A stretch of DNA of 64,000 nucleotides, from NCBI GenBank assembly GCA_013360215.1, contig JABWCP010000002.1, positions 62,001-126,000 of the forward strand, in the 5' to 3' direction. The position numbers and the translations under genes were made by a program. Positions 2,287 through 44,645 of this stretch are shown here, in pieces; position 1 is the first letter of the stretch, and each line of letters starts with the position of its first letter. Below the pieces are notes generated by a model. That model worked only from the letters and a program-made list of their open reading frames with translations. It made no database searches and was not told where the DNA came from. This DNA is from a bacterium (lineage in GTDB: Bacteria; CLD3; SB21).

Positions 2287-4017
2287 TTAACTTTTCCATA
2301 GAATTTCATACACAGTTACCGGCTCCGCAACACCTTTGAGCGTAACGCGTTCGATCGGCGAGGCGATACTTTTGTTAGGCAAAAGATCATACGTGGACTG
2401 ACTGACGATGATCTGTCCGGCTTTAGCGACGCTGCACAAGCGATTGGCAATGTTGACGGTTTCACCGATCACGGTATATTCAAGGCGTTTATTGGAGCCG
2501 ATATTGCCTACAACGACTTCGCCGGTATTGATGCCGATACCGATATTGATCGGAGGATGTCCCTCGAGTTTGCGTTGAAAATTGAATTTCTCAGCTGCAC
2601 GTTGCATCTGTACGGCGGCATTGATAGCGCGCATATAAAAATCATCGTAGTGAACCGGCGCTCCGTAAAAAGCCATAATGGCATCGCCGATAAATTTATC
2701 CAACGTACCACCATAACTGTCAATAATGTCTATCATTTCATCAAAGTGCGAATTCAGTAAATTAATAAGTTCCTGAGGGTCCATACCGCGCGACATCGGC
2801 GTAAATCCGCGGATGTCGGTAAACATGACGCTGAGTCGGTTCTTTTCGCCTTTGAGAATACCATCAACGGATTGTTCGGACAGAACTTTTTTGGCAACGT
2901 CAGGGGAAAGATATTTACCAAAAAGATTTTCGACACGTTCTTTTTGCTTGAGACCCTGCGTCATCTCATTAAAATTTTTACCCAGCTCACCGAACTCATC
3001 GCGTGATTTGATCTGCAACATGATATTGAGATCGCCGGATTGTACTTTGTGCATAGCGTCGGAAAGCTGATGTACAGGCTTGGTCACGCCGCTGATAATT
3101 GCCAAAGCGATCATAAAAGCTAAAATGGAAACTCCGCCACCGACAAAAACCATCGTACGCTGCGAAGCGACAAGCGGCTCTAAGGCTTTGTCGAGTGAAC
3201 TAAAAAAAACATACGTCGCAATAACCGGGCGATCCTGACCCTGGCTTCCCGTAGCTGCAAAAACGGGATGAGCTACAGCCAAATAACGCTCACCATGAAT
3301 CGTAAACTGAAAAGGATCGCTTGAGGTTTTACGAATCATCGCCTGATCTAAAAAACTTTGGGATGATTTGAATTGGGCGAGAAGTTCGTTTCGATTTTCA
3401 AACTTATCCGTTGCAACGATTTTCCCGTTGATAATAAAGGCAATGGAACTTGTGGTAACTTTAGCGATTTTGGTTGCTACGGTATCCGTCACATCATATC
3501 CCAAAACGATGCCGCCAAGAACTTGATTATTGACGATCGTAGGAGAAGCCGCCACACGGAGAAGTTTACCATTCTCTTCCCAAAAACCACCGTTATCATA
3601 TCCTTCGAGTGCAGCGGCGACTTCAGGGCGCTGTGAAAGATTCATACTCGCGCTCAGTTCCGTGCCGACAAACGCCAATACCTGGCCGGACGGGCTCAAT
3701 GCGACAAATATATCGGATTTGAATTCGCCAATCTGATTGGTTTCTTCCAGCGCTTGTTGTACTGTTTTTTGGTCGCCCGTACTAAGTTGTGCAGCGAACT
3801 TGGGATTATCTGAAACGCTACGGCTCTGGAGTATCAATTGTTCGAAATAGCTGTTATTAAACTCTTCATAGGTGCCGTTACTTTTGATTAGCCGATCGGT
3901 AATATCGGTTTCGATATTTTTAGCCAAACCGAGCGAAACGATGACGTACGCAACGGCCGCCAACGTCAAGGTCACAGTTACGAGAAAAATCAGCTTGTAA
4001 CGGAATTTGATAATCAT
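2287..4017 (-). CDS. Membrane class III adenylate/guanylate cyclase (periplasmic Cache-like sensor, HAMP)
   Basis: FTDIRGFT, LDKFIGDAIMA, GIGINTG, YTVIGETVNIANRL; HAMP DEFGEL; two TM segments. Confidence 0.92.
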   Translation of the reverse strand: MIIKFRYKLIFLVTVTLTLAAVAYVIVSLGLAKNIETDITDRLIKSNGTYEEFNNSYFEQLILQSRSVSDNPKFAAQLSTGDQKTVQQALEETNQIGEFKSDIFVALSPSGQVLAFVGTELSASMNLSQRPEVAAALEGYDNGGFWEENGKLLRVAASPTIVNNQVLGGIVLGYDVTDTVATKIAKVTTSSIAFIINGKIVATDKFENRNELLAQFKSSQSFLDQAMIRKTSSDPFQFTIHGERYLAVAHPVFAATGSQGQDRPVIATYVFFSSLDKALEPLVASQRTMVFVGGGVSILAFMIALAIISGVTKPVHQLSDAMHKVQSGDLNIMLQIKSRDEFGELGKNFNEMTQGLKQKERVENLFGKYLSPDVAKKVLSEQSVDGILKGEKNRLSVMFTDIRGFTPMSRGMDPQELINLLNSHFDEMIDIIDSYGGTLDKFIGDAIMAFYGAPVHYDDFYMRAINAAVQMQRAAEKFNFQRKLEGHPPINIGIGINTGEVVVGNIGSNKRLEYTVIGETVNIANRLCSVAKAGQIIVSQSTYDLLPNKSIASPIERVTLKGVAEPVTVYEILWKS

Positions 4018-4141
4018 GTTTTATTTCTCCGGACGGTTAATCACATGTGGATTCAAATTACCTTTTGGGTGTTGAAAATACAAGCGTTATCGTATTTGTT
4101 CGCTTGCCGTGATTTCAGAGCACTTTTCATCCGGAATTGTG

Positions 4142-4170
4142 TTGATTCGTGTTACATTCGCTTCTATCTT
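4142..4170 (+). promoter_or_regulatory. Putative sigma70 promoter, the likely original promoter of the gene now starting at 9498
   Basis: TTGATT-17 nt-TATCTT, 23 nt upstream of the duplicated ATG at 4194. Confidence 0.5.
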
Positions 4171-4193
4171 AAACAAACGAAACGGATAAAAGT

Positions 4194-4214
4194 ATGACTT
4201 TGATCATAGATGCG
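4194..4214 (+). repeat. 21-bp direct repeat, left copy (attL-like)
   Basis: ATGACTTTGATCATAGATGCG, identical to 9498-9518; flanking bases differ on both sides. Confidence 0.95.
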
Positions 4215-4335
4215 TGCCGCCAAACAGCTTGTTTCGGTTGTGCTTTTTTAAAAAAAGTATTCTTTTAAAAAAAATTACGATATGAATAAATAAATTTTTT
4301 TGCCAAAAAATCTCGCCTGTTTTTTATGCACTTAT

Positions 4336-4368
4336 AAAATCTTGTAGGTAATTTACCTACAAGATTTT
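4336..4368. promoter_or_regulatory. 33-bp perfect palindrome, candidate operator
   Basis: AAAATCTTGTAGGTAA-T-TTACCTACAAGATTTT (16-bp arms); a further CCTACA half-site about 10 bp downstream. Confidence 0.6.
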
Positions 4369-4605
4369 CAGCCATTTCCCTACAGACTTCCACATTTTTT
4401 TGATGTATATTTAGTGTGTAAGTTACTTTTTGATCGATCAAGTAGCGTCCCATTTTGTTCCAATTGTTCTTTTGTTCTTTTTTGTTTGTATTTCGAATTC
4501 GTAGTCCAGAGATAATCAGTTCACCAAAAAAAGTTCGTGATTGATGTCAATGGGCGAGGTGTACCTTTTTTAAATCTTTATTTAATGTATTGAGGAGAAA
4601 CTCAA

Positions 4606-6675
4606 ATGAAACGTATGAAACGTCTGGTCGTAACAGCAAAAAGTTTATGCTTGATGCTCTTGTTTAATGCGGCTCTCTATGCGCAGACAACTAATGTCGT
4701 AACTGAAAATGCAAACCCGGGAACGGCCGGTTATATTCCTTATTTCTACAATGCTAGTACGCTTCGCAACTCACCTTTTTATTATAATGGCGGTAATATC
4801 GGTGTGGGAAACCCCTCGAATATCTCAGCCTATTTCGATGTGAATGGAACTGCAAAATTTCGGGGGAACACGGTTAGCTTTGGTCAATTTTCAGATTATC
4901 AACATTTGTCGGGTATGGACATCGTTTATACTGACGGTGGTTCAGGTACTATTACCTTTCGTGGTCAACGTTGGGGAAGTAATTGGAAATGGGAACACTC
5001 ATATTCCGGGGGTATATACGTTCCTCAAATGCAACTTGATAATAGTACCAACGCTCTTTACTTATTCAACAGCTCAACATCTGTAGGAACTGCAACCGTC
5101 CGTTTGCATCCAAATGGTTTAACGTATTTTAATGGCGGTAATGTCGGTATAGGTACTACGAGTGCAACTCAAAAACTCGAAGTATGGGGTGCAAATTCAG
5201 CACCGGGCACCAGCGGTACTGCCGCAGATGGTATTCTTCGTCTACAGCCTACAGGCAGCAACGCGATGGTTGATTTTGGTATGGTTACAAGTAATGCATA
5301 CGCCTGGATTCAGCCACGCGATCGAAGCAATTATGCCACTAATTTCAATCTTTCACTTAATCCGAATGGCGGTCGTGTCGGTATCGGTACGACAAACCCA
5401 GTAAGTATTTTATCAATTGGCGCAAACAATACAACGATGCCAACTGATGGAGGTATCTCTCTCGGTAGTGATCAAGCAACGCTTCAGATGCTTCATTCTA
5501 ATTGGGGCTCAGGCTATGGCTCAAAAATATACGGTAAGGATGATGGAAATGGGGAAACATCGTTCAGAATAGCTACTCGCCATGGTGTTTCGACATGGAC
5601 TGATCGTGTATATTTATCAACGCAAACAGGCAATGTCGGTATAGGCACTAATACGCCCGGCAATAAACTTGATATTGCAGCTTCTAACCGTCAACTTCGT
5701 TTGACAGATACAGATGATAGCAAATTTTGGCAGCTCAGCGCTTCGTCCAATGCCTTGGCTTTTCGTTATCAAGAAGGACTTGCAGATGAAAAATTAGCCA
5801 TGTGGATGACTAGCAACGGCGATGTTGGGGTTGGGACTAGCAGTCCTACGCAAAAACTCGAAGTGTGGGGTGCTAATTCAGCTCCTGGCACCAGTGGCAC
5901 TGCTGCTGACGGTATCTTGCGTTTGCAACCTGTCGGTAGTGATGCTATGGTTGACTTTGGTATGGTTACCAGTGGGGCTTATGCATGGATACAACCACGC
6001 AATCGAAGCAATTATGCCACTAACTTCAATCTTTCACTTAATCCGAATGGCGGTAATGTCGGGATAGGTACGACAACGCCTAGCTATAAACTTCAAGTTA
6101 ATACTGTTGCATCAGGTAAAGCGGGTTATTTTCAGACAACAGGCAGTTGGCAGGCAATTGACTTCTCGTCTGATGGCGGTACTACAAAAGGTAGTTTAGC
6201 AGCCGCTGGGGGAAATATATATTTGGGCAAGTCCGATGTAGGAACTGATCCCAAGATAACGGTAAATATCACAAATGGCAACGTCGGTATCGGCACGACT
6301 TCTCCCGGAGCAAAACTCCATGTCGAAGGTGGTAATGTGTGGATCGGACAAAAAACGGTTCAGTACACCGGTCCGGATACTTACAAACTCAATGTATTTG
6401 GCAATGTGCGCGCAGACGAAATCGTCGTCAATACCAACGGTGCTGATTTTGTATTCGAAGAAGGATATAAGCTGCCATCTCTGGACGAAGTCGAAAAACA
6501 CATCAAAACCCAAAAACATCTTCCGGGTATCGCCTCGGCCGCCGATATGCAAGCCAATGGCGTCGGTATCTCCGAACTCCAAACCAAACTCCTCCAAAAA
6601 GTCGAAGAACTTACGCTGTATGTGATTCAGCTGAAAAAGGAAAATGAAGAGTTGAGGAGAATGATTCAGTACTAG
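4606..6675 (+). CDS. Secreted tail-fibre/adhesin-like protein with GNVGIGT repeats and C-terminal intramolecular-chaperone-like (peptidase S74-like) coiled-coil domain
   Basis: Signal peptide ending ALYA-Q; seven G(N/R/D)(V/I)G(I/V)G junction motifs; C-terminus DFVFEEGYKLPSLDEVEKHIK..HLPGI..LLQKVEELTLYVIQLKKEN. Confidence 0.75.
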   Translation: MKRMKRLVVTAKSLCLMLLFNAALYAQTTNVVTENANPGTAGYIPYFYNASTLRNSPFYYNGGNIGVGNPSNISAYFDVNGTAKFRGNTVSFGQFSDYQHLSGMDIVYTDGGSGTITFRGQRWGSNWKWEHSYSGGIYVPQMQLDNSTNALYLFNSSTSVGTATVRLHPNGLTYFNGGNVGIGTTSATQKLEVWGANSAPGTSGTAADGILRLQPTGSNAMVDFGMVTSNAYAWIQPRDRSNYATNFNLSLNPNGGRVGIGTTNPVSILSIGANNTTMPTDGGISLGSDQATLQMLHSNWGSGYGSKIYGKDDGNGETSFRIATRHGVSTWTDRVYLSTQTGNVGIGTNTPGNKLDIAASNRQLRLTDTDDSKFWQLSASSNALAFRYQEGLADEKLAMWMTSNGDVGVGTSSPTQKLEVWGANSAPGTSGTAADGILRLQPVGSDAMVDFGMVTSGAYAWIQPRNRSNYATNFNLSLNPNGGNVGIGTTTPSYKLQVNTVASGKAGYFQTTGSWQAIDFSSDGGTTKGSLAAAGGNIYLGKSDVGTDPKITVNITNGNVGIGTTSPGAKLHVEGGNVWIGQKTVQYTGPDTYKLNVFGNVRADEIVVNTNGADFVFEEGYKLPSLDEVEKHIKTQKHLPGIASAADMQANGVGISELQTKLLQKVEELTLYVIQLKKENEELRRMIQY
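5137..6075 (+). repeat. Intragenic duplicated module of about 86 aa (5137-5394 and 5818-6075)
   Basis: TQKLEVWGANSAPGTSGTAADGILRLQP...NYATNFNLSLNPNGG occurs twice, offset 681 bp. Confidence 0.95.
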
Positions 6676-6703
6676 TATATTAATTTTTTTAGGAGTTCTA
6701 TAG

Positions 6704-9340
6704 ATGAGAACAATAAATGCGTTATTATTATTAATTATAAGTCTTACAGCCGGGTCAGTTTTTTCAGCAGAGAGAACGTTAGTTGTTCCAGATGATTATC
6801 ACTATTCTGCATCAGTAATAGTGGTTGACAAACTAGGACGTCCAGTGCCTTATGCTGACATTACATTAAAAGTGCAAGTTTATTTTACTAGAATGGATGG
6901 GTATCAATGTTTGCCTGGCGAATGCCCTTCCCCAACTTCTACTATTATGTCATCCAAAACAAATTTAGCGGGGATAGCAGCTTTCGACTTTATTTTTCCT
7001 AATCCCAATCCACCTGAAGATCCGAATTATTACACTCGTCCTAGATCTGCATGGTATATTGGATTTGCCGATAAAATTTATGATTTAGCAAATGATCAAT
7101 CAAATTTTGTCGAATTAATTAGCCCTCAATATTCTGAGCAAGACCACATCACATATACTTTTATTATTGATGATGATGCTCCTCTACAACCCAATAATTT
7201 AATTTTTCCCAACGACGAAGTTAGTGATGATTTTCAAATCTTTCCAGAAGAGTTTAATTTGGACAATGGGTTTAGTTCACACTCAACCTCGACAACCGGG
7301 TTTAATGTTTATATGTACTACGGATACAATAAGGTACAAGCTATAACCAAACCCATTCTCTTAATTGAAGGGATTGATTTCGACAACGAGAAAAATGATT
7401 GGAAAAGACTATATCCAATGATTGGAAGAGATTTTATTGAAAATAAGCTTAGAGGGAGAGGCTATGATGTGATTATTGTTGATTTCAAAGACGGTACAAA
7501 CTTCTTAGAAAACAATGCTCGTTCTGTAATGAATGCAATAGCATGGACAAATCAGCAACTTGCATTGAATGGGAGTTCAGAAAATATTATTTTAGTAGGC
7601 GCCAGCATGGGGGGCGTGCTTTCTAGATATGCATTGAAGGAGATGGAGAATAGGTATCTATCAGCTTTGATAAATAATCAATCTAATCCTAACCAATGGA
7701 ATCATAATACCAAATTATGGACTTCGTTTGATTCTCCACAACAGGGGGCAAATATACCGATAGCTGATCAAGCTTTTTTAAGTTTCTTCTCTGCACTAGA
7801 TCCGAAAAGCGAAAAAAAATTCAAGAACCTTGGGAAGCCTGCACCAAGACAATTAATGAAAAGTAATTATAAAAACGCATTTATATCTAACGGTCCATTT
7901 GGGATAAAAAATTTAAATTATTCAAATAATAACAGTGATCATGATGTATTCTTCAATGAATTACTTTTTATGGGATATCCGATGTATCTTGAAAAAATTG
8001 GTATCTCAAATGGAAGTGGTTTTGGAAATGACGGGCTCCAAAAAACCTCTGATGGAATTCAATCAATGTCATCTAGTGGTGAATTAATGCTAAAAGTTGG
8101 TTGTGATGGCTCATGTGCAGATGTTGAATGGGACATCAAACTTTATTCATCAAACATAAATAGCTCTGATCAGTTAGTATTTAATGGAATTTATGATGTA
8201 TTAGACGATGACTGGTACTCTTTTTCGTCACTTCTTACATGGGTTCCTTTTGGCATAATTGATTATGCTTTAGACTATGCTGATGATATAGGTGTATCAG
8301 GTACACCGTTAGATGAAAAAATAGAATATTGGTTTGTAAAAAACGCAAATTCATTGTACCAAAGTGTTAGTATGTTCCCCGACAATGCTCCAGGAGGTTA
8401 CAGAGAAACACAAAAAGAAATATATAATAAATCAAAACGAGCATTAAGGTCCGGCGGCGGGGAAATTAATTTGTATTTTTCCAAACATTGCTTTATTCCC
8501 ACGACAAGTGCATTAGATTTAAGAAATAGTACCAATCAACGAGTTAGTCCCTATACTAAGTTAATTGGTACGGACAATGATCTAACTAAGCTTCCTGTAG
8601 GAGTGCAAACGCCTTTTGATCATATAAGGTATCAAACAGAAAATGAAAAGCATGTCTTTATAAGCCAGTCCACTGGAGATTGGTTAGATGAATTGTTGAC
8701 TCCAATGAGTTTAGTTGTTGAAAATAAACTGTTTGACAAATGGAATCGAAAATTCACTGGAACCGAGTTGGTTGAAGTTAAGAACACTCAAATTAAACCA
8801 AACTTGCTCGGGGGCACACCTCCAGTTTTTGAAGTAAGCTCTGGAAAAAAAATAGTTATTAGCTCAGGTACTACAATAAAAAGTGGCGCCAAGTTTTTAG
8901 CAAGTATTGATCCCAACCTCATAGTAAACGGAACTCAAAATAACACTTCGTACCTAATGTCCGCAATGGCTAAATCATCCGAATCTGAATCGGATATGAA
9001 AAAAGATGCTGCGGACAGTGTCAAAACTGAGATTCCGACAAAACCGTTAGAACTTCCTACGACTTTCAGTCTTGATCAAAACTATCCCAATCCTTTTAAC
9101 CCGACGACGACTATGCGTTATGCGTTGAAAGAGGATGTGGCGGTCACGCTGAAGATATACAATATGCTGGGACAGGAAGTAAAAACACTCGTCAATAATC
9201 AGAAACAGGCGGCTGGTTTCAAATCCGTCATGTGGGATGGACGTAATAACTACGGTCACCAGGTACCGAGCGGTACCTATATCTATCGCCTTCAAGCCGG
9301 GACTTTCATCCAAACCCGAAAGATGCTGCTAGTCAAATAG
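6704..9340 (+). CDS. Secreted alpha/beta hydrolase (lipase/PGAP1-like) with C-terminal FlgD-Ig/T9SS-type sorting domain
   Basis: Signal peptide; KPILLIEGID, GASMGG nucleophile elbow, FDSPQQGANIP, HCFIPT; C-terminal LDQNYPNPFNP...TRKMLLVK. Confidence 0.8.
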   Translation: MRTINALLLLIISLTAGSVFSAERTLVVPDDYHYSASVIVVDKLGRPVPYADITLKVQVYFTRMDGYQCLPGECPSPTSTIMSSKTNLAGIAAFDFIFPNPNPPEDPNYYTRPRSAWYIGFADKIYDLANDQSNFVELISPQYSEQDHITYTFIIDDDAPLQPNNLIFPNDEVSDDFQIFPEEFNLDNGFSSHSTSTTGFNVYMYYGYNKVQAITKPILLIEGIDFDNEKNDWKRLYPMIGRDFIENKLRGRGYDVIIVDFKDGTNFLENNARSVMNAIAWTNQQLALNGSSENIILVGASMGGVLSRYALKEMENRYLSALINNQSNPNQWNHNTKLWTSFDSPQQGANIPIADQAFLSFFSALDPKSEKKFKNLGKPAPRQLMKSNYKNAFISNGPFGIKNLNYSNNNSDHDVFFNELLFMGYPMYLEKIGISNGSGFGNDGLQKTSDGIQSMSSSGELMLKVGCDGSCADVEWDIKLYSSNINSSDQLVFNGIYDVLDDDWYSFSSLLTWVPFGIIDYALDYADDIGVSGTPLDEKIEYWFVKNANSLYQSVSMFPDNAPGGYRETQKEIYNKSKRALRSGGGEINLYFSKHCFIPTTSALDLRNSTNQRVSPYTKLIGTDNDLTKLPVGVQTPFDHIRYQTENEKHVFISQSTGDWLDELLTPMSLVVENKLFDKWNRKFTGTELVEVKNTQIKPNLLGGTPPVFEVSSGKKIVISSGTTIKSGAKFLASIDPNLIVNGTQNNTSYLMSAMAKSSESESDMKKDAADSVKTEIPTKPLELPTTFSLDQNYPNPFNPTTTMRYALKEDVAVTLKIYNMLGQEVKTLVNNQKQAAGFKSVMWDGRNNYGHQVPSGTYIYRLQAGTFIQTRKMLLVK

Positions 9341-9373
9341 ATATAATTTTTTGAGAAACCTTCGTAATTTCAC

Positions 9374-9404
9374 AAACCACGCGATCGCATCGCGTGGTTT
9401 TTTT
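9374..9404 (+). terminator. Intrinsic terminator after island genes
   Basis: AAACCACGCGAT-CGC-ATCGCGTGGTTT followed by T tract. Confidence 0.85.
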
Positions 9405-9497
9405 GTTTTATTGTATTTAAGGCGCTTGTTTCAAATATTGCCTTGATGGAATAAGCCATTTATCCATAAATCATAAAATGAATAACACAGAAATCTC

Positions 9498-9518
9498 ATG
9501 ACTTTGATCATAGATGCG
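9498..9518 (+). repeat. 21-bp direct repeat, right copy (attR-like); first 7 codons of the downstream gene
   Basis: Identical to 4194-4214. Confidence 0.95.
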
Positions 9519-10310
9519 CATGGGCAAAACTTACATTTCGAGAAACCGCCCGAACGGGTTGTTTCGCTGATACCGAGCATTACGGAGTCGCTTTTCGAAC
9601 TCGGACTCGGCGATCGCATTGCTGGGATTTCAAAGTATTGCATCTACCCGGAAGACAGAGCCCGGGATAAACCCACAGTCGGAGGGCAGAAAAATCCTGA
9701 TTTTGAAAAAATTTCGAAATTAAACCCGGATTTGATAATTCTTAACGAAGAAGAGAATAAACCGGAGCATATTGCGTTATTTAAAAAAAACTATAGGACT
9801 TTTGTTACATTTCCGCGTATATTTGTCGAAGCAGGGGAGCTGCTTGATCAGCTGGGGTTGATCTTTCATATCCCCGACCGTACAAAAGTTTTTTCTGAAC
9901 AAATACGACTCGATCATAGTCGGCTGACAGCCTTAAGTCCTACACGGCTCCGGGCCTTATATCTTATCTGGCGCAATCCGTGGATGTCTGTCAACCGCGA
10001 TACTTTCATACATGATATTCTGTCTTTGGTTGGTTTGGACAATGTTTTTGCAAACCAAACTCCGCGTTATTTTGAAGTAACACGGGAAATGATTTTGAAT
10101 GCACAGCCGGATGTTATCATTTTACCGGATGAGCCCTATCGTTTTTTGAAAAAACATATTGCAGATTTTGACGGTTTGGACATTCCGGCCGTAAAAAATT
10201 GTAATATTTTTCTGACGGACGGTACTTACTACTGTTGGTACGGTACGCGTACGGCCCGAGCAATAGAGTATATAGACCAAAACATCATACATCGGATTGT
10301 TACATGTTAA
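9498..10310 (+). CDS. BtuF-like helical-backbone metal/cobalamin-binding protein (no signal peptide)
   Basis: PERVVSLIPSITESLFELG, VGGQKNPD, LNPDLII, PDEPYRF. Confidence 0.85.
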   Translation: MTLIIDAHGQNLHFEKPPERVVSLIPSITESLFELGLGDRIAGISKYCIYPEDRARDKPTVGGQKNPDFEKISKLNPDLIILNEEENKPEHIALFKKNYRTFVTFPRIFVEAGELLDQLGLIFHIPDRTKVFSEQIRLDHSRLTALSPTRLRALYLIWRNPWMSVNRDTFIHDILSLVGLDNVFANQTPRYFEVTREMILNAQPDVIILPDEPYRFLKKHIADFDGLDIPAVKNCNIFLTDGTYYCWYGTRTARAIEYIDQNIIHRIVTC

Positions 10311-13300
10311 AACATCTCTTCGTTTTTGTGACGGTATTATCCCTCTCATTACAGGCGCAATATTACGATAATTATTTCGGCACCAATAAGGTGCAGTACA
10401 CGCATTTTCAGTGGAATATTTTAGAAACGGAACATTTTGAGATCTATTATTATCCGGAAATGCGCGAACTCGCTGAACGTGCCGGCGGGTTGGCTGAAGA
10501 GCAATATGCGGAGCTTCAATCCCGGTTTAATCATGCTCTGATTAAAAAAGTACCGATGATTATTTATAGTTCGCACATGCATTTTCAGCAAACAAATACG
10601 ATATCCGCTGAATTACCCGAAGGCATAGGTGGTTTTTTTGAATTTTTCAAAGGTCGGGTAGTATTGCCGAGTGACGGTTCAACCACACACTTTCGTAGGG
10701 TTTTAAGGCACGAATTGGTTCACGTTTTTATGAATTCGAAGGTGAACCGGATCATAAGCCAACATCGAAAATTTAATCATCCCGGCCCCCCGTTGTGGTT
10801 CACCGAAGGTTTAGCGGAATATTGGTCGGGTCAGCCCGATTTTCAGGCTGAAATGGTCATTCGCGATGCGACGCTCAACGGCACACTGTTACCGGTACAG
10901 GAGTTTTGGCGCATTGACGGATCGTACTATATGTATAAACTTGGTGAGAATTTTCTTCATTTTCTCACTGAAAATTACGGTGAAGAAAAAATTCTTCAAC
11001 TCATGGAGAATATTTGGAAATTTGATGAATTTCAAAAAGTCGTAACACATACGGTCGGAAAAAATTACGAGACCTTAAGTCAAGAATGGCTCTACTGGCT
11101 TAAAAAGAAATATTATCCGACTTTATCGAAAAGCGACATGCCGTTTGCGATTTCGCAAACCATTACCAAAGTGGGGTTCAGTTCGAAGCCGGCCTATCTT
11201 TTTGACGGTACTAATGAAGAAATCTTTTTCGTCGCCAATCGCGACGGCTATACCAATATATATCGCCAGAATCTTAAGGAAACCAAGGCAACCGTTTTCA
11301 TCGAAGGTGAAAGAACGCATGAATTTGAGGCGTTTCATTTTTTTAAAAGTAAAATCCACGTCAATGAACAAGGTCAAATAGCATTTGCAACTAAAAGCGG
11401 TGAGCGTGACGTACTATATGTTTATAACACACAAACCGGTAAAAAGGAGCATCAATATACCTACAAAGATTTGACTGGGATCATTTCTCCGCATTGGGCA
11501 CCCGATGGCAAGTCTATTGTCTTTTCCGGACTCCATATGTCGGGTAATAGCGACTTGTATACCGTTCATGTAAGTACGGATGAAACCGACGGTATCCTCA
11601 CACGCATTACCAATGATTTTTATGATGATCGCGATCCGGCATGGAGTCCTGACGGGAAGTACATAACTTTTAGCTCCGATCGTGCGGGTTTTTCGCCGGA
11701 AGGAACATATAATTTATTTATCTATGATCTGGAAACCGCGCGGACATTTCAGTTAACCAGCGGCAAATATCAGGACGCTTCACCAGCATGGTCACCTAAA
11801 GGTGATTACATCGTTTTTACTAGTAATCGTCAGGGAAGTCCGACCAATATTTCAGTTGTTCCGTTTATATATCAAGGTCAATCATTTATAGAAACAGCAG
11901 CGCGAGGCGAATTACAAGACAGTATGTACGCGCACTATGCGCCACGTCAGCTGACCGATCTCACCTCAGCGGTTTTTGACCCGATTTGGACTAAAGACGG
12001 CGATCTTGTAATGACCGCATTCGAGGATTTTAGTTTCAAATTACGACGTATGGAAAAAGCATATGACAAAGCGCGTCAGTTGGTTCCGACAGAACGAAAA
12101 AAAATAGACGGTTTTCGTTATCCATGGACGACACCGAAGGTTTCGATCATTGCAAGCAATACCCGTTCGTATGAAAAAAAATACAGCCTTGATTTCGTCC
12201 AAGGCGCTTTTCAGATCGCACCGACGTACGGCTATGGTGGCGGTGCCACGATAGGATATACCGACATGATGGGCGATGATCAATATTACCTTACCGTTTT
12301 TAATACAGGCCAAACCACTTCCGATATTTTAACGGATTGGAATTTTATTCTGACCAAAGTTAATCTAGGGCAACGTGTAAAATACGCTTATGGTGGTTAT
12401 CGTTTTAAAGGCGAGTTTACTCAAATTGGCGACCAAGGCTTACCAGAGTCAGTGTATGAAGAACGTTATGGAGGGTTTTTTCAAGTTGCGTATCCATTAT
12501 CCAGGTTTGAACGCATTGAAACGGGGGTTTCTGTCAGTCGGTATCAACGCGGAGCTGCTTTTGGCGCGTTACTTCCACTGGATGGGGTAAGCATCGGAAA
12601 TAATATCGGATACGTGTACGATAACGCACTATGGGGAATAACCGGGCCGATAGACGGGCATCGTGCTATGCTATCGCTAGGTTATACATCGGATGCGTAT
12701 AAGTCGCAACAAAACTTTTATACGATTATTGCAGATTACCGTCATTATTTTCGTATCACGATGCGATCAGCGTACGCATTTCGAGCTATGACACAATGGA
12801 ATGACGGTAAAAACCCAAGTAATTTCGTCGTCGGAGGTAGTTGGGATTTACGTGGTTTCCCACGATGGAATATGCCTGGAACACGTTTTTTTGTTATGAA
12901 TCATGAATTGCGATTTCCTTTGATGGACGCTATACAACTGAAGTTCCCGTTTGTAGGCTTGGGTTTCCGTTCAATACGAGGAGCTATATTTACAGACATT
13001 GGAAACGCCTGGGGAGTACAAAAGACCGATGGTCGAGTGATTCTTGGCCATCAAAAATTTGATGGGTTTTTAGGTAGTGTAGGCACAGGGTTCCGCGTTA
13101 ATTTACTTGGCGTTATGGTGCTACGATTCGATTTTGGAAAGATGTTTGATGCGCGCGGTTATAAGTTTGGTAAAATTCGTTTACCCGGTAATCGTGATCG
13201 ATTTGTCGAAACTAAGTTGAATACCAACAAACGATCGGAAGGTTTTGGCGGAATCGACAATGACGGAAGTATAATTGAAAAAAGACGTTGGTCGCGCGGT

Positions 13301-13336
13301 ATATTTTTCCAATTTTGGTTTGGAGCTGATTTCTAA
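10304..13336 (+). CDS. Omp85-family outer membrane protein with N-terminal HExxH peptidase-like domain and TolB/PD40 propeller
   Basis: Likely start ATG 10304 (MLKHLFV..., signal peptide); HELVH..WFTEGLAE; PAWSPDG repeats; GGSWDLRGF and FTDIGNAW Omp85 motifs; terminal F. Confidence 0.8.
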   Translation: MLKHLFVFVTVLSLSLQAQYYDNYFGTNKVQYTHFQWNILETEHFEIYYYPEMRELAERAGGLAEEQYAELQSRFNHALIKKVPMIIYSSHMHFQQTNTISAELPEGIGGFFEFFKGRVVLPSDGSTTHFRRVLRHELVHVFMNSKVNRIISQHRKFNHPGPPLWFTEGLAEYWSGQPDFQAEMVIRDATLNGTLLPVQEFWRIDGSYYMYKLGENFLHFLTENYGEEKILQLMENIWKFDEFQKVVTHTVGKNYETLSQEWLYWLKKKYYPTLSKSDMPFAISQTITKVGFSSKPAYLFDGTNEEIFFVANRDGYTNIYRQNLKETKATVFIEGERTHEFEAFHFFKSKIHVNEQGQIAFATKSGERDVLYVYNTQTGKKEHQYTYKDLTGIISPHWAPDGKSIVFSGLHMSGNSDLYTVHVSTDETDGILTRITNDFYDDRDPAWSPDGKYITFSSDRAGFSPEGTYNLFIYDLETARTFQLTSGKYQDASPAWSPKGDYIVFTSNRQGSPTNISVVPFIYQGQSFIETAARGELQDSMYAHYAPRQLTDLTSAVFDPIWTKDGDLVMTAFEDFSFKLRRMEKAYDKARQLVPTERKKIDGFRYPWTTPKVSIIASNTRSYEKKYSLDFVQGAFQIAPTYGYGGGATIGYTDMMGDDQYYLTVFNTGQTTSDILTDWNFILTKVNLGQRVKYAYGGYRFKGEFTQIGDQGLPESVYEERYGGFFQVAYPLSRFERIETGVSVSRYQRGAAFGALLPLDGVSIGNNIGYVYDNALWGITGPIDGHRAMLSLGYTSDAYKSQQNFYTIIADYRHYFRITMRSAYAFRAMTQWNDGKNPSNFVVGGSWDLRGFPRWNMPGTRFFVMNHELRFPLMDAIQLKFPFVGLGFRSIRGAIFTDIGNAWGVQKTDGRVILGHQKFDGFLGSVGTGFRVNLLGVMVLRFDFGKMFDARGYKFGKIRLPGNRDRFVETKLNTNKRSEGFGGIDNDGSIIEKRRWSRGIFFQFWFGADF

Positions 13337-14487
13337 TGAAAACAATCCTTGTATGCATCATACTGATCTTTCAATTAATGGCTTGCGGCACTACCGGCAA
13401 TATTCGCATTGCTGCTTATTTCAAAAAATCCACGACTTCGCCATGGAGTAATATCGGCGGAAACCCAGGTCGAACCGGATATGCATTAAACGAGCTATCA
13501 GTTCCAATGCAGACAGTATGGACTAAAAAATTATCCACTTCGCTAGGTAAGGCCATTGTCGTATCGGACAGTATCATATATACGACAACGCATGATGGTC
13601 GTTTTTATGCAATACATTCAGGAAGCTCAAAAACGGTCGGATACATTAAATTTATTCACGCATCACAAGCCGGTGCGGCAATAGCCGGTCAGAAAACAGC
13701 TATCGGCATTTCTAACGGGAAACAAAATTTCATCACACACCAAGTTTTTGACGGAAAATTTTTAACAATCAAAAATACCGGTGCCATCGAAACAAACCCT
13801 TTGATATATGACGATCTGGCGTATGCCGGTACACTAAGCAATACGGCCGTTTGCGTGGATATGAATAACGGGGAAACTGTTTGGAGCCACACAACATCTG
13901 CACCGATTCACTCTTCACCTACCATCTCGGGTTCGGCAGTATATTTTGGGGATGATGAAGGAACACTTTTTTCCCTTAATCGCTTCAATGGCAAGTTGCT
14001 CTGGAAACTCAAGCTTGGAGGCCCGATTCTTTCTGCGCCGGTCGCAGACGATAGTCTGGTGTACGTTGCGTGTAACGATAGTACGTTGTACGCAATTCAT
14101 CAAAAGGATGCCGTGATTACTTGGTATTACCGCATAGGATACGATAAACCCGGTAATTTCTATGCTTCACCCGCGGTGGATGAAAAACTTTTATATATAG
14201 GCGCTACCGACGGACGGCTGTACTCATTTGAAAAGCGGAACGGTAATTTAGTATGGATGTATGAAACTAAAGGCCCTATTTCCATCGCACCGGTAATAAG
14301 CAAATCGATTGTCTTTATAGGGTCACAAGATAAAAGCGTATATGCGCTTAATAAACACACCGGGACCTTGGAGTGGCAGTTTGAAACGGAAGGGCGAATT
14401 AAATCTGAAATGGCAATTTACGGCGGTTCACTTTTCGTTGGCTCAGAAAACAACATGCTTTATAAATTTAGCGGGAAACTCAAATGA
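13336..14487 (+). CDS. PQQ-like beta-propeller lipoprotein (BamB-like)
   Basis: Lipobox LMAC; repeated SP/AP...G.L.W propeller blades. Confidence 0.8.
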   Translation: MKTILVCIILIFQLMACGTTGNIRIAAYFKKSTTSPWSNIGGNPGRTGYALNELSVPMQTVWTKKLSTSLGKAIVVSDSIIYTTTHDGRFYAIHSGSSKTVGYIKFIHASQAGAAIAGQKTAIGISNGKQNFITHQVFDGKFLTIKNTGAIETNPLIYDDLAYAGTLSNTAVCVDMNNGETVWSHTTSAPIHSSPTISGSAVYFGDDEGTLFSLNRFNGKLLWKLKLGGPILSAPVADDSLVYVACNDSTLYAIHQKDAVITWYYRIGYDKPGNFYASPAVDEKLLYIGATDGRLYSFEKRNGNLVWMYETKGPISIAPVISKSIVFIGSQDKSVYALNKHTGTLEWQFETEGRIKSEMAIYGGSLFVGSENNMLYKFSGKLK

Positions 14488-15308
14488 ATAGGTACTTACA
14501 GAGCTTGTTATATCTTTTTACTTTAGGGATTCTCGTTCCAGCGATGACTTATTGTCAGAACAAAACTCCATACGGTTATTTAAAGATAATTCCCCTCGAA
14601 AACCGGACTGTTATTTATTTAGACAACGTTGCTTACGAATGGGAAAATGGTAAAGTATTCAAGCTTCTTGCCGGACGACACACTCTCGCGGCCCGGCGAG
14701 ATAATGGTCTTCAAGCGGAACAATTGGACTTTTTACAAAACATTATCATCAACAGAGAGGATACGTTGTCTGTAAATTTGCGTTTCGAAAAAGCCATAAC
14801 GATTCAAACGAATACGCCCAACTCAGCATTTGTTTTTATCAACGATTCGCTATACGGTAAAACACCGTATTTATTTATACCGGATACAGAGGATACCTAC
14901 AATGTTCGCATCAGCAAAACAGGGTATTGGGATACGACCTTTACCATAGTTTCACACGATACGCCATTAACGATGGGATTAAAGCCAAAAAACCATGAGA
15001 TAAAATCGTTAAATGATAATGAGTTTGTTAACGAACGATGGCGCAAACAAGGTATTCATAGTTACAAGAAGCACCTGCTCATAGCGGGTCTAAGCTTGAT
15101 TGTCTCCGGGTACTATACGGCGGCCAATAAAAAAACGGCGGATGACGCTTTTGAAAAAGCGAAGCTGGCCAGACGATCGGGAAATATCGCATTATCAAAA
15201 AAACTGACGGACAAGACCCGCCGTTATGATGATCGCGCCCGAATCGGATTTATCGGTTTACAAATCAGTTCAGCCGGATTTGCAACGCTGCTTTTACTCA
15301 GTCGTTAA
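14484..15308 (+). CDS. PEGA-domain membrane protein
   Basis: AFVFINDSLYGKTP..YNVRISKTGY; C-terminal hydrophobic helices. Confidence 0.65.
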   Translation: MNRYLQSLLYLFTLGILVPAMTYCQNKTPYGYLKIIPLENRTVIYLDNVAYEWENGKVFKLLAGRHTLAARRDNGLQAEQLDFLQNIIINREDTLSVNLRFEKAITIQTNTPNSAFVFINDSLYGKTPYLFIPDTEDTYNVRISKTGYWDTTFTIVSHDTPLTMGLKPKNHEIKSLNDNEFVNERWRKQGIHSYKKHLLIAGLSLIVSGYYTAANKKTADDAFEKAKLARRSGNIALSKKLTDKTRRYDDRARIGFIGLQISSAGFATLLLLSR

Positions 15309-16692: not shown

Positions 16693-19600
16693 GTGATCAA
16701 ATCTGTAATAACATATTGCGGGTTTACTTTTTTATTTGTTTTCGGCTCGACGGTATATAGCCAAAACATGGTAAAAGGTTTACCGGTCATTGAGCATTAT
16801 GCCCCACAAACTTACGGAGCGGGCGTAGACAATTTTTGTTTTGTTCAGGATAAACGCGGTTTTATATATGTTGCCAATGGCTCCGGCGTATTGGAGTATG
16901 ACGGCATTCAATGGCGATTGATCCCGTTAGAAAATCGCGCGGCCGCCTCATGGCTTACGATCAGTCCGGAGGGGACGATATTCGTGGCCAGTCTTGGTGA
17001 ATTTGGTTGCTTAGTTCCCGACAGTTCCGGTTTTTTGAAGTATCAATCCCTCGTTAATCGTCAGACTCACCCGCAGTTAAAATTTCAAACATTTTGGGAA
17101 ATGTGCGCTTCGTCGCAAGCGACGTATTTGCGAAGCTATAGGCATTTAGTGCGATACAAAAACGGCAGCATCAAAGTGTGGCCTGCCGATGGAGACGGAT
17201 TCGACATCATGGGTATGGTGTATGATACGATATACACACGTATCAAACATGAAACGATTGTTCGAATCATCGGGGACAGCCTTGTACCGTTGCCGGGCGG
17301 AGACTTCTTTAAAGAAATAAAAATCAACGGCTTCCTTCCTTATCAAAAAAACAAACTACTTATCGCAACCCGTAAAGATGGTCTTTTTATCTACGATGCC
17401 GGCCAAATCAAATCCTTGAAAACGGAAGCGGACGATTACTTAAAAAAATATTTTGTCTATGATACGCGCCAATTGCCGGATGGCGGTTATGTCATCGCGA
17501 CCTTGCAGGGCGGCGTGGTGTTATTCGATGAAGATTTGCGTGTCAAACAAATAATTGATGAAACTTCCGGTTTGCCTGCCAACGGTGTTAATTCGGTGTT
17601 TGTAGATAATAATTTTAATCTGTGGCTGGGCCATAGCTATCACGGCATTACGCGAATCGAGATACACACACCTCTCACGTTGCTCAATGCCTCAACGGGT
17701 ATCAATGGTCGCGTCAAACGCATGCTGCGCCATAAAGGCACTTTATATGTGATGACCAATAGCGGCCTATTTCGATTGACCGAAAAGGGGAATGCATACC
17801 ATTTTGAATCACTGCATTCCGGTGCGCCGTATTATTTTGATATGTTTGTTACGCATGGGCGACTGCTGATCTCTACCGGAAATGGTATTTTAGAGGTGAA
17901 AGATGATAACGTTTTGACACACACTCCTGTATATACGTATGCTGTATTAAATAGCAATCGAGATTCTAATATCGTCTACGCGAGCGAAGGCCTAGGGATG
18001 ACGATTTATCGTGTTGGCAAGTCTGAGAAATGGGAACTTGTAAAAACAATATCTTCTGTCAAAGTAGCCGTACGAACTATGGCGTATGACGAATATGGAG
18101 ACCTTTGGCTGGGTACGGAATATGAAGGCCTCGGGCGTATGCAAATCAATAAAAAGGACCATCTGCCGGATACGGTCGAATTTTTTGATAGCAAATTAGG
18201 ATTGCCTGCCGGTGAAATTTCAGTATGGTCCACCGGTGCAGCGCCATTATTCTCAGGTCATGACGGATTTTATAAATTTTCCCGTCAGCATCACCGTTTC
18301 AATAAATTATCCGAAACTGAAATGGCAATGCATCGAGAAAATAGCGAATATTGGATTGGTTTGAACCAAGGACGGTGGAAGATCACGCCGATGGCTTTAC
18401 AAATAATGCCTGAAAAAACCATCATCAATAGATTACGTGCTATAAAAAACGCCGTTGATTTTATATATTGGCGCGATACGGACGGTACAGAATGGTACGG
18501 CGGTGATTTTCTTATTGCTAAACATAAACCCCAACCCCAAACGCTTTTACCCGAGCGGCCTACGGTTGTACTTCGCCGCGTTATGCAAGGTTTGGAAGTG
18601 ATTTTTTCAGATGATGAAATCAAAAGAAATCATCAGATCGTTTTTGAATCCGAGCCCACGCAGCCGATTCGTTTTGAATTTACTGCACCTGTTTTTGAAA
18701 TGCGGCCTCAGTTTCAGACCCGTATTATCGGTTTGAACGAACAATGGGAATCTTGGGGTAACGATCCTGTTCGTTTGTATGAACGTATACCGGCCGGAAA
18801 CTATCGTTTTGAAGTCAGGGCCCGCGATCATTTTGGACGTATTTCAGAAATAACAGGTGCCGACTTTGTTGTCAATCCACCATGGTATCTTACGCATACG
18901 ATGCTGATGTTATTTGCATTGGTCATTATCGCCTTAGTTTGGCTGTTTATCCGTTATCGGGAACATCGCCTTAAGCAGATGAATCAGGAGCTTGAACGCC
19001 TAGTAGAGGATCGTACGCGTGCGCTTAAAGCCAAAGAGGCACAGCTCATTCAGTCCGAAAAAATGGCAGCACTTGGGCAGATGGTCGGTGGCGTAATGCA
19101 CGAAATCAACAACCCCTTAACATTTATTCAACCCAATCTTGAGTATGTGCAACTTAATTTAAAGAAATTTATCAGTGATATCGCCGCCAACCCCGTAACT
19201 GAAAATCGTCAGGCGGAAATTCGCGAATTTGAGCGCGACACCATCAATGCACTTAAAAGTTCGGCCAAAGGCGCCGAACGCATACGCGATATTGTATCCA
19301 GTCTAAAGAGTTTCAGCGCATACGGTAAAAACCAGGTGATGGATGTTCGTTTGGATCATCAACTATCGGGTGTAGTGGATCTTATTTTTAATCAGAATAA
19401 CGATATTCGTTTTATCCGTTCATTTAACGATACGCGATTTGTACGGATTGATACGATGGAAGTAATGCAATGTGTAGTCGGCATTCTAAATAATGCCGTC
19501 GCCGCAGTTCATGATGCACTGGCTGAAAAGATATTATCGCAGGAAAACGCTGAAATACGCATCCTTACTATGGATGGTCCCGATCAAACAGTGATTTTAC

Positions 19601-19806
19601 AAATAGAAGATAATGGTATCGGTATTCCTGAAGCCGTGCTTCCGAGAATATTTGAACCTTTTTTTACCACGCGCACGATCGGTAAAGGAAAAGGGCTTGG
19701 CCTCTCGGAAGCCTATGCCGTAATTAAGAAACATCATGGTAATATAGAAGTAACGAGCAAAACGCGAAAAGGTACGCGCGTAATCATCACTTTGCCGTCG
19801 GTTTAA
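16693..19806 (+). CDS. Sensor histidine kinase with periplasmic beta-propeller and Y_Y_Y domains
   Basis: HEINNPL H-box, DNGIGI, FEPFFTT, GLGLS; G.YRFEVRA Y_Y_Y; TM after PPWY. Confidence 0.9.
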   Translation: MIKSVITYCGFTFLFVFGSTVYSQNMVKGLPVIEHYAPQTYGAGVDNFCFVQDKRGFIYVANGSGVLEYDGIQWRLIPLENRAAASWLTISPEGTIFVASLGEFGCLVPDSSGFLKYQSLVNRQTHPQLKFQTFWEMCASSQATYLRSYRHLVRYKNGSIKVWPADGDGFDIMGMVYDTIYTRIKHETIVRIIGDSLVPLPGGDFFKEIKINGFLPYQKNKLLIATRKDGLFIYDAGQIKSLKTEADDYLKKYFVYDTRQLPDGGYVIATLQGGVVLFDEDLRVKQIIDETSGLPANGVNSVFVDNNFNLWLGHSYHGITRIEIHTPLTLLNASTGINGRVKRMLRHKGTLYVMTNSGLFRLTEKGNAYHFESLHSGAPYYFDMFVTHGRLLISTGNGILEVKDDNVLTHTPVYTYAVLNSNRDSNIVYASEGLGMTIYRVGKSEKWELVKTISSVKVAVRTMAYDEYGDLWLGTEYEGLGRMQINKKDHLPDTVEFFDSKLGLPAGEISVWSTGAAPLFSGHDGFYKFSRQHHRFNKLSETEMAMHRENSEYWIGLNQGRWKITPMALQIMPEKTIINRLRAIKNAVDFIYWRDTDGTEWYGGDFLIAKHKPQPQTLLPERPTVVLRRVMQGLEVIFSDDEIKRNHQIVFESEPTQPIRFEFTAPVFEMRPQFQTRIIGLNEQWESWGNDPVRLYERIPAGNYRFEVRARDHFGRISEITGADFVVNPPWYLTHTMLMLFALVIIALVWLFIRYREHRLKQMNQELERLVEDRTRALKAKEAQLIQSEKMAALGQMVGGVMHEINNPLTFIQPNLEYVQLNLKKFISDIAANPVTENRQAEIREFERDTINALKSSAKGAERIRDIVSSLKSFSAYGKNQVMDVRLDHQLSGVVDLIFNQNNDIRFIRSFNDTRFVRIDTMEVMQCVVGILNNAVAAVHDALAEKILSQENAEIRILTMDGPDQTVILQIEDNGIGIPEAVLPRIFEPFFTTRTIGKGKGLGLSEAYAVIKKHHGNIEVTSKTRKGTRVIITLPSV

Positions 19807-26900: not shown

Positions 26901-27049
26901 CAACCGCGGCAATGTACAATACCGTTCGCGAAACTGAAAAGAGTTGGGAAAAACTAACGGCTGAATGGGAAAAACTAAAAACCGTGCATCTTGATGCCGT
27001 AAATAAGCATTTAATAAAACTTAAATGGCCTGAAATATCAAACCCATGA
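23927..27049 (+). CDS. VPS10/sortilin-like BNR-repeat glycosyl hydrolase-like protein
   Basis: WRMIGPFRGGR; many S/T-x-D-G-G-x-T/S-W Asp boxes; signal peptide. Confidence 0.88.
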   Translation: MRHLRHSLMTALSILIVCSDYATAQNFEKDVAAAFRWRMIGPFRGGRTVGAVGVRQQPNVFYIGVNNGGVWKTEDFGRTWFPIFDDQPTGSIGDIVVAPSDPNILYVGSGEGLQRPDLSVGDGVYKSTDAGKTWKHTGLRDGQQIGGLAIDPEDPNRVFAAVLGHPYGANTERGVFRTINGGASWEKVLYIDENTGAIQVTLDPKDSKTVYATLWAARQGPWENGSWQGPASGLYKSTDGGTTWKKLTQGLPTTKEGLGRIGFCIAPSLSSRLYATVDSPEKGGIYRSDDGGNSWRLMNPDNRLWGRGGDFAEVKVDPRNPDIVYSANVAFWKSTDGGKNWTCVRGAPGGDDYHRIWINQDNPDIMLLAADQGAIITVNGGKTYSSWYNQPTAQFYHVSTDNAFPYNVLGGQQESGSASVSSRGHGGQITYRDWLPVGVEEWGYVAADPLNPDLVYGGKLTKYDRKTGHTQSVGPFPTGHYQPNRSPYRFLRTAPVIFSQADPTALYYAGNVLFKSQDGGHAWRVISPDLSRESWDVPKSIGVYTTESMKTMPRRGVIYTVAPSPLDSSVIWAGTDDGLIHITRDGGKTWQNVTPTEITSWSKISLIDAGHFDVNTAYVAVNRIRLDDMKPYIYKTHDGGKTWIKIVEGLPDDPINAVREDHIKEGLLICGSERAVYASVNDGQNWISLRNNMPATSIRDVVIKDNDIVAGTHGRSFWIMDDIMPLRHITEVSRQAPVWLFKPSNAYRVRWNLYTDTPLPQEEPAGENPPDGAIIYYHLKQDAQTPVVIEIKNSRGEVVRRFSSNDSTPMSRNNNFPSYWLASPQRVSAKAGSHRLIWDLRHSPLPTEPEFSIAAIYGKTTPAPTSPLVMPGFYSVVISANGLTMGESLTLVMDPRVRMTDTEIKDQFDLSMRCYEIRKKGMLVTRHIQSWRAQADKYMGRLKSNSSEIKKFLGYIDAVEKGNASTGDKGLQTIMQSTTNMFDVIQHADMPPTAAMYNTVRETEKSWEKLTAEWEKLKTVHLDAVNKHLIKLKWPEISNP

Positions 27050-44569: not shown

Positions 44570-44645
44570 TGGAGCCGATGATCAGGATCGAACTGATGAC
44601 CTTTTGATTACGAATCAAACGCTCTACCAACTGAGCTACATCGGC
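44570..44645 (-). tRNA. tRNA-Thr(CGU), intact with encoded CCA, inside the insert
   Basis: GCCGATG TA GCTC AGTTGGTA GAGC G TTTGA TTCGTAA TCAAA AGGTC ATCAG TTCGATC CTGAT CATCGGC T CCA; all four stems pair; 76 nt. Confidence 0.97.

Follow-up and report, generated by a model that had tools for sequence, protein, structure and literature searches.

A 5.3-kb island lies at the extreme 5′ end of a TroA/BtuF-like gene in a bacterium of the lineage CLD3; SB21, and the evidence that it is an insertion is laid out here. The stretch of DNA analyzed, hereafter the window, is 64 kb long (contig JABWCP010000002.1 of assembly GCA_013360215.1, positions 62,001 to 126,000 of the forward strand), and all coordinates count from its first letter. 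The island carries two genes for secreted proteins of 689 and 878 amino acids (aa) and is bounded by two copies of a 21-bp sequence. Very probably, judging from the sequence, a segment of 5,304 bp split the TroA/BtuF-like gene between its codons 7 and 8, with the 21 bp being duplicated in the process. This reading follows from the location of a promoter that sits before the left copy of the repeat, yet lies directly before the gene in relatives. Comparison with those relatives also indicates that the insertion is lineage-specific. The whole account, including conservative site-specific recombination as the mechanism, is given a probability of roughly 0.5.

A 21-bp Repeat and the Gene It Opens

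The 21-mer ATGACTTTGATCATAGATGCG occurs on the + strand at 4194-4214 and 9498-9518, with exactly two copies in the window and no further copy there when up to three mismatches are allowed. Chance alone would provide 0.01 matches, and none of 100 shuffles contained two or more copies. In fact, this 21-mer is the sole perfect direct repeat of at least 17 nt in the entire window. Directly outside the two copies the bases no longer agree on either side, which fixes the length of the repeat at exactly 21 bp. Its start coincides with the A of an ATG, the copies are identical at 21 of 21 positions, and zero target bases have been lost.

The two copies open very different reading frames. The left, attL-like copy consists of the ATG plus codons 2-7 of the host gene, and it opens a relic frame of only 24 codons (4194-4268, with the stop at 4266-4268). 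The right, attR-like copy is the functional start of the host gene and opens a 270-aa open reading frame (ORF) of the Peripla_BP_2/TroA-like kind. A first-pass annotation of this DNA had described both perfect copies, the BtuF-like ORF that begins at the right one, and the short frame ending at 4268 that begins at the left one. All of these observations hold up, the first by exact matching, uniqueness in the window and the shuffles, and the second by the family matches and N-terminal alignment given below.

The insertion target itself, at 9498-10310 on the + strand, encodes a 270-aa "helical backbone metal receptor" without a signal peptide. The product matches Pfam PF01497 at 2.5e-22 and NCBIfam NF038402 with 133 bits (cut-off 30). 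When aligned with 25 relatives (alignment A1), it retains 55 of 55 invariant columns, and Asp6 is nearly invariant; 15 of the 25 relatives start in the same alignment column as the protein predicted from the right copy. On this alignment evidence, the right copy encodes the real N-terminus of the gene product. An orthologue that is 97% identical (P0001) sits on a contig of 1,346 nt. The protein and its 25 closest relatives belong to a periplasmic-binding-protein fold family, all without a signal peptide, and the group shares invariant Cys48 and Cys246 residues as well as a CWYG motif. It is unlikely that this protein is a classical BtuF.

The gene heads a compact run, its 3′ end overlapping the Omp85/PD40 gene (10304-13336) that follows. 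A PQQ-propeller gene (13336-14487) and a PEGA gene (14484-15308) abut or overlap in turn, an arrangement by which the four genes from 9498 look like one transcription unit. In the TroA/BtuF-like group, the gene on the 3′ side always encodes a protein of ~1,000 aa with peptidase-MA-like, PD40 and Omp85 parts. In the window, the start of this gene is probably the ATG at 10304, which provides a signal peptide and a 7-nt overlap with the upstream stop. A longer form starting from a TTG at 10235 is less likely, since relatives align only from its residue 40-41.

The Displaced Promoter

A scan of genome contigs recovered 80 related loci, and the 11 closest were used to compare gene order. These 11 come from uncultured Bacteroidota-type metagenome-assembled genomes, and their proteins are 45-58% identical to those of the window. 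The Omp85/PD40 homologue lies downstream in all 11, the PQQ gene was also seen in 6 of the 11, and the arrangement of promoter and TroA/BtuF-like gene is uninterrupted in every one. What lies upstream varies, and includes a response regulator with an HD domain, DUF6962, a divergent Peptidase_M64, and MutL. The left flank of the island in the window holds genes for CcmF (224-2239) and a dCache-HAMP nucleotide cyclase (2287-4017), both on the - strand; neither cyclase nor CcmF occurs in the 11 closest loci, and neither island gene was found in any of the 80 related loci. The first-pass annotation had suggested that the adjacency of the cyclase and btuF genes be compared in relatives, and this comparison proved uninformative because the upstream neighbor differs among relatives and no cyclase or CcmF is found in the close loci.

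Distances upstream of the gene were more telling. Ten close loci had 700 nt or more of DNA before the gene, and in these the spacer between the start codon and the nearest ORF before it is never longer than 281 nt. The corresponding gap in the window, counted from the nearest upstream ORF outside the island, is 5,480 nt to the right copy of the repeat and 176 nt to the left copy.

The promoter lies on the + strand at 4142-4170, where TTGATT and TATCTT are separated by a 17-nt spacer, and it ends 23 nt before the left copy. Its general form, TTGMTT-N17-TATYTT, has its sole match in the window at this site. The same motif occurs ~5-40 nt before the start of the orthologue in 7 of the 11 closest loci, with only three other matches across all 80. 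Since 17 of 100 shuffles also contain one match somewhere in 64 kb, the weight lies on where the motif sits, not on its mere presence. No match was found before the right copy, even with up to three mismatches. Likewise, when the upstream regions were aligned (alignment A2), the promoters of relatives matched up with the left junction and not with the right. Because the motif is conserved upstream of the orthologue in relatives, the promoter before the left copy can be regarded as the ancestral promoter of the TroA/BtuF-like operon. What had initially been called a plausible promoter has therefore gained comparative support from 7 of the 11 closest loci.

The individual sites are at 4142-4170 in the window and at 189-217 (L001), 1655-1683 (L002), 9936-9964 (L003), 653-681 (L005), 9937-9965 (L006), 4679-4707 (L007), and 9939-9967 (L010) in the related loci. 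Across these sites, the element reads TTGATT or TTGCTT, 17 nt, and TATCTT or TATTTT, with extra conserved bases flanking both hexamers. It has been kept despite protein identities of 45-58% and differing upstream neighbors, a degree of conservation that is unusually strong for a promoter. It may be that the conserved element includes the site of a regulator.

Proposed Site-Specific Recombination and Its Rivals

In the ancestor, very probably, the promoter at 4142-4170 lay directly before the TroA/BtuF-like gene. In the favored account, a circular element carrying an attachment site (attP) would have recombined with the start of the gene (attB) via a common 21-bp core, generating attL and attR. 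By this means the 5,304-bp segment would have entered between codons 7 and 8 at no loss to the target, leaving the sequence from ATG to codon 7 on both sides. The right junction regenerates the full reading frame, and the left junction strands the promoter and a 24-codon relic reading toward the insert. The recombinase would since have gone from the island or would never have been there. With no recombinase inside, the island would now be non-autonomous, being either a decayed element similar to a cis-mobilizable element (CIME) or a cassette moved in trans. The size of the repeat is consistent with attachment sites: the direct repeats of integrated elements are described as typically 10-60 bp, with 18 bp in ICEclc (excerpted text of PMC5812530), and a 21-bp repeat fits this geometry because it falls inside the range.

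The first-pass annotation had also proposed site-specific integration at the 5′ end of a gene, with the element restoring the start codon. The location at the extreme 5′ end stands, as does the restoration, since the right junction supplies the start codon and first seven codons anew. The site-specific part of the claim fared less well, as neither the island nor the window holds a recombinase and the dyad offered in its support is at chance level. The annotation had rightly noted that no integrase, transposase or terminal inverted repeat occurs inside the island, and both the family scans and a comparison of the ends agree.

Several results weigh against site-specific recombination of a foreign element. 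Searches of the island with Pfam, NCBIfam and PHROGs found no integrase, excisionase, transposase, relaxase or remnant of one, and the 45 scanned ORFs of the window included no integrase, transposase, relaxase or phage structural module. Words common to the two island ends are not above chance (69 of 300 shuffles reach the longest), for which reason no arm-type sites are evident. A duplicated gene start was found in 0 of 79 related loci, and the 21-mer is not conserved in relatives at the DNA level; with a single instance and no such conservation, recurrent targeting of the site is not demonstrated. The GC content of the cargo and its GC content at third codon positions (GC3) both fall inside the range of the window, where GC runs from 0.35 to 0.50 per 2 kb, and a blastn search of the island against phage and plasmid collections gave no match. 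Finally, the last 97 nt of the insert (9401-9497) showed neither a σ70-type site on the + strand nor the lineage motif with up to three mismatches; the σ70-type scan is a weak test, since it reported nothing on the + strand of 3950-4700, a range that includes the conserved promoter at 4142-4170.

The dyad enters on both sides: within the repeat it lends the account no support, and its extension across the island end counts in favor. The ATGA/TCAT symmetry that the first-pass annotation had seen in the 21-mer is present, but its arms are only 4 bp and 81 of 200 shuffles of the 21-mer fold equally well or better. The last five island bases (9493-9497) lengthen it to a dyad of eight pairs at 9493-9515, with one bulge and a 6-nt spacer. 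The score of this extended form is matched by 2% of 53-nt background windows, under a scoring picked after the site had been seen. For a tyrosine or serine recombinase, inverted half-sites would be expected around an overlap of 6-8 bp, and the candidate counterpart here would be this bulged dyad, scored post hoc, with its 6-nt spacer. All told, the dyad is weak, AT-rich and scored post hoc, and the extended form is a lead only.

Longer homology at the junctions was also sought. Upstream of the two copies, no decayed homology was found, the observed score being reached by 174 of 500 shuffles. Downstream there is one marginal 21-nt match, whose score is reached by 12 of 500 shuffles. It pairs 4217-4236, just inside the island, with 9546-9566, which is 48 nt into the host coding region; 17 of 21 positions are equal with one gap, and the 5′ ends of relatives offer no better counterpart. 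This likeness is probably due to chance, and it could conceivably be a trace of longer ancestral homology between element and target.

Evidence for a foreign origin of the insert is modest. Codon-usage distances for the 11 genes of at least 2 kb are highest in the two island genes, at 0.148 and 0.126, versus 0.072-0.118 in the others; the 878-aa gene has the largest of all and a GC3 of 0.305. Both island genes are preceded by an AGGAG ribosome-binding site, as compared with 4 of 37 other genes. GC content was rejected as proof of foreign origin, given the span of 0.35-0.50 per 2 kb across the window.

The main rival is an insertion that needed no dedicated recombinase, namely, a one-off illegitimate or short-homology event with a 21-bp duplication, among whose outcomes those that kept the gene were selected. 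Candidate routes include template switching during replication, a Campbell-type crossover of a circular fragment via ~21 bp, and homology-facilitated illegitimate recombination after DNA uptake, which is described as homologous recombination at one end with illegitimate joining at the other (excerpted text of PMC3240628). Such an event would account for the lack of a recombinase, a remnant, or arm-type repeats, and for the single instance among relatives. Moreover, the composition of the cargo is near that of the host, which would allow a relative or the same genome as its source, and the upstream edge of the operon is a recurrent synteny breakpoint among relatives. On the other hand, the event was perfectly conservative, and its clean duplication has the A of the ATG as its very first base. 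Illegitimate joining more commonly leaves deleted or scrambled sequence, and 21 bp is short for a RecA-dependent crossover. A circular donor with exactly this 21-mer would need its own explanation, and such an event gives no reason to expect a dyad around a 6-nt spacer at the right junction. On balance, a recombinase-free insertion is possible rather than probable, and the other readings trail behind it. One of these is that the 21 bp represent a target-site duplication made in trans, on a non-autonomous element, by a transposase or casposase-like enzyme. A loss-free direct duplication of the target is indeed what transposition yields, but the island has no terminal inverted repeats or common end sequences, neither it nor the window encodes a transposase, and 21 bp exceeds the usual target duplications of 2-15 bp. 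Transposition is accordingly quite unlikely.

It is also conceivable that the arrangement is an assembly artefact or chimera, in which the contig path runs twice through a common 21-mer and thereby joins an empty-site chromosome to unrelated or circular DNA. The length of the repeat invites this suspicion, as 21 is a common smallest k-mer size of metagenome assemblers. However, a common k-mer gives a single crossover, not a duplicated k-mer around a coherent insert, and both junctions make biological sense, with a promoter and relic frame on the left and a terminator and intact gene on the right. An identical 878-aa protein recurs on six contigs, a fact that speaks to recurrence of the gene and says nothing about the junctions. 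An artefact is very unlikely. The remaining alternative, that the arrangement is native and the repeat fortuitous, or that the promoter and seven codons were copied to a place before the fiber-like gene, is extremely unlikely. The GC content of the cargo would allow it, but chance is excluded by the shuffles of the 21-mer, and a copied promoter should have left the original in place before the right copy, where there is none. Nor does a native arrangement agree with the relatives, in which the gene start lies no more than 281 nt from an upstream ORF in 10 of 10 close loci, the motif is found in 7 of 11, and the cargo genes are absent from 80 of 80 related loci.

Layout and Cargo of the Island

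The left non-coding end of the insert (4215-4605) is 391 nt long, AT-rich (GC ~0.33), and holds no credible gene. Within it, a perfect hairpin with 16-bp arms and a 1-nt center occupies 4336-4368 (z = -5.55; 0 of 200 shuffles fold as well). This palindrome may be a bidirectional terminator that insulates the cargo from the captured promoter, or it may be a protein-binding site. No family of Pfam or PHROGs matches a 62-aa ORF on the - strand (4265-4453), for which a search of 1.84 billion representatives yielded 0 homologues; because of this, and because the 33-nt palindrome lies inside it, the ORF is taken as spurious. When all stop-to-stop ORFs in 4215-4605 were compared with Pfam at E values up to 10, the only match was to VtrC, at 0.024. 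A search of 3900-9700 with Rfam gave two matches with E values of at least 0.56, far under the gathering score, and no riboswitch.

The first cargo gene (4606-6675, + strand) follows an AGGAG ribosome-binding site. Its 689-aa product combines a signal peptide with a repetitive fiber-like body and a coiled C-terminal tail. It matches two tail fiber families of PHROGs, phrog_18345 (6.5e-23) and phrog_9942 (4.9e-12), as well as the PDB entry 8ond_A (bd2133) at 1.5e-6. The protein has 3055 relatives; among the matches listed, with its own copy excluded, identities are 27-54% over local alignments, and PF13884 is found on several of these listed relatives. By sequence, it is a member of a very large and loosely related family. 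The gene contains an internal direct repeat of 260 nt, whose copies (5136-5395 and 5817-6076) are 80% identical and lie 681 nt apart. A 22-nt unit that encodes a GN(V/I)GIGT motif occurs in it five times, and these repeats could expand or contract by recombination. A 523-aa database form of the protein was considered as a variant and rejected, since it reflects merely a different start call.

The second cargo gene (6704-9340, + strand), also with AGGAG, encodes a secreted protein of 878 aa, in which a PGAP1-like alpha/beta-hydrolase region (GASMG motif) is combined with a type IX secretion sorting domain at the C-terminus. Its Pfam matches are FlgD_ig, CHU_C, Por_Secre_tail and PGAP1, and it matches NCBIfam TIGR04183 with 37.5 bits (cut-off 23). 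The nearest relative is 37% identical, and the esterase families PF07819, PF05057 and PF02089 are found on relatives. The longest of the six contigs on which the identical protein is recorded is 604 kb. Beyond this gene lies an intrinsic terminator on the + strand at 9374-9400, formed by a 12-bp stem and a T run (z = -4.26; 0 of 200 shuffles fold as well), and the right non-coding end of 97 nt (9401-9497, + strand) completes the insert.

Elsewhere in the window, two paralogous propeller-type histidine kinases (16768-19806 and 30511-33786) share DNA segments of 74-76% identity, namely, 19040-19145 with 32984-33089 and 19609-19739 with 33592-33722. The pair brackets tandem paralogous BNR/sortilin-like proteins of 1,000 aa (23927-27049 and 27098-30370). 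The only tRNA gene in the window is at 44570-44645.

Consequences for Expression and Annotation

The conserved promoter now points into the island, whose two cargo genes it may drive, provided that transcription passes the hairpin at 4336-4368. No other promoter was recognized on the + strand in 4215-4605, where the motif has one match with three mismatches at 4400-4428. The displaced four-gene run, which now lies behind a strong terminator, would depend either on a start site within the 97 nt that close the insert or on transcripts that read through that terminator.

The island is of interest as a clean and comparatively dated insertion at a 5′ end, in which the gene has stayed intact and a conserved run of four genes has been severed from a promoter conserved across distant relatives. 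As such, it makes a case for promoter capture by an island together with promoter replacement for a host operon. For annotation, the 24-codon ORF at 4194 is better regarded as a relic than as a gene, and the two cargo genes as accessory. The island may also serve as a lead toward a trans-acting recombinase in a little-known lineage. A bolder idea, and a quite unlikely one, makes the island a "promoter-capture" cassette that lacks a recombinase and is moved in trans, with the first 21 bp of the conserved operon as its attachment site. If so, two genes for secreted proteins would land under the operon's conserved promoter, and a start codon and perhaps a weaker promoter would be handed back to the displaced operon. 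Cassettes of uncultured Bacteroidota would then use gene starts much as integron cassettes use attI.

Comparison with Known Elements

The layout of the island has precedents among described mobile elements. Transposons and insertion sequences are recognized by a transposase and terminal inverted repeats, and the island has neither. Integrative and conjugative elements (ICEs), integrative and mobilizable elements (IMEs), and prophages carry an integrase gene, usually beside one att site, which is lacking inside the island, and share with it identical end repeats and conservative insertion (21 of 21 positions). A CIME is described as an island that keeps its att sites after the loss of integration genes (excerpted text of PMC5704250). 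The island, with its attL/attR-like ends and no integration or transfer genes, would belong here only if the repeats are att sites; decay from an identifiable ICE or IME, or mobilization by a related integrase, was not seen, there being no pseudogene remnants, no phage or plasmid match, and no integrase in the window. The CIMEs of streptococcal ICE and IME sites resemble it in that att-like repeats bound cargo only (as excerpted in PMC5704250). They differ in being recognized through a known ICE or IME family, in usually targeting the 3′ end of a gene, and in lying beside an active element, whereas no parent element, decayed genes or neighboring element was seen in the window.

Sites of the ICEclc type offer a second likeness, with short identical end repeats of 18 bp as against 21 bp here (excerpted text of PMC5812530). 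ICEclc targets a tRNA gene by means of the IntB13 integrase, and neither an integrase nor a tRNA is involved here.

The closest geometry is that of elements that enter the 5′ ends of genes. Islands specific for dusA are described as supplying a new promoter and restoring the reading frame, and SXT does likewise at prfC (excerpted texts of PMC8409611 and PMC2791158). As here, the dusA elements (e.g., IMEVchUSA3) and the SXT/R391 ICEs at prfC have attL/attR repeats, a frame restored at attR, and a displaced native promoter (excerpted texts of PMC8409611, PMC2791158 and PMC5812530). In contrast to the island, dusA elements and SXT bring a tyrosine integrase and a directionality factor of their own, span tens of kb, confer a divergent new N-terminus, and supply a demonstrated promoter. 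The island is 5.3 kb long, has no genes for recombination or transfer, restores an N-terminus identical to the original, and shows no recognizable promoter at its right end. It has neither an integrase of its own nor prfC or dusA as its target, and the likeness is one of geometry only. This geometry is already documented for elements targeting dusA and prfC, and the island represents no new class of system.

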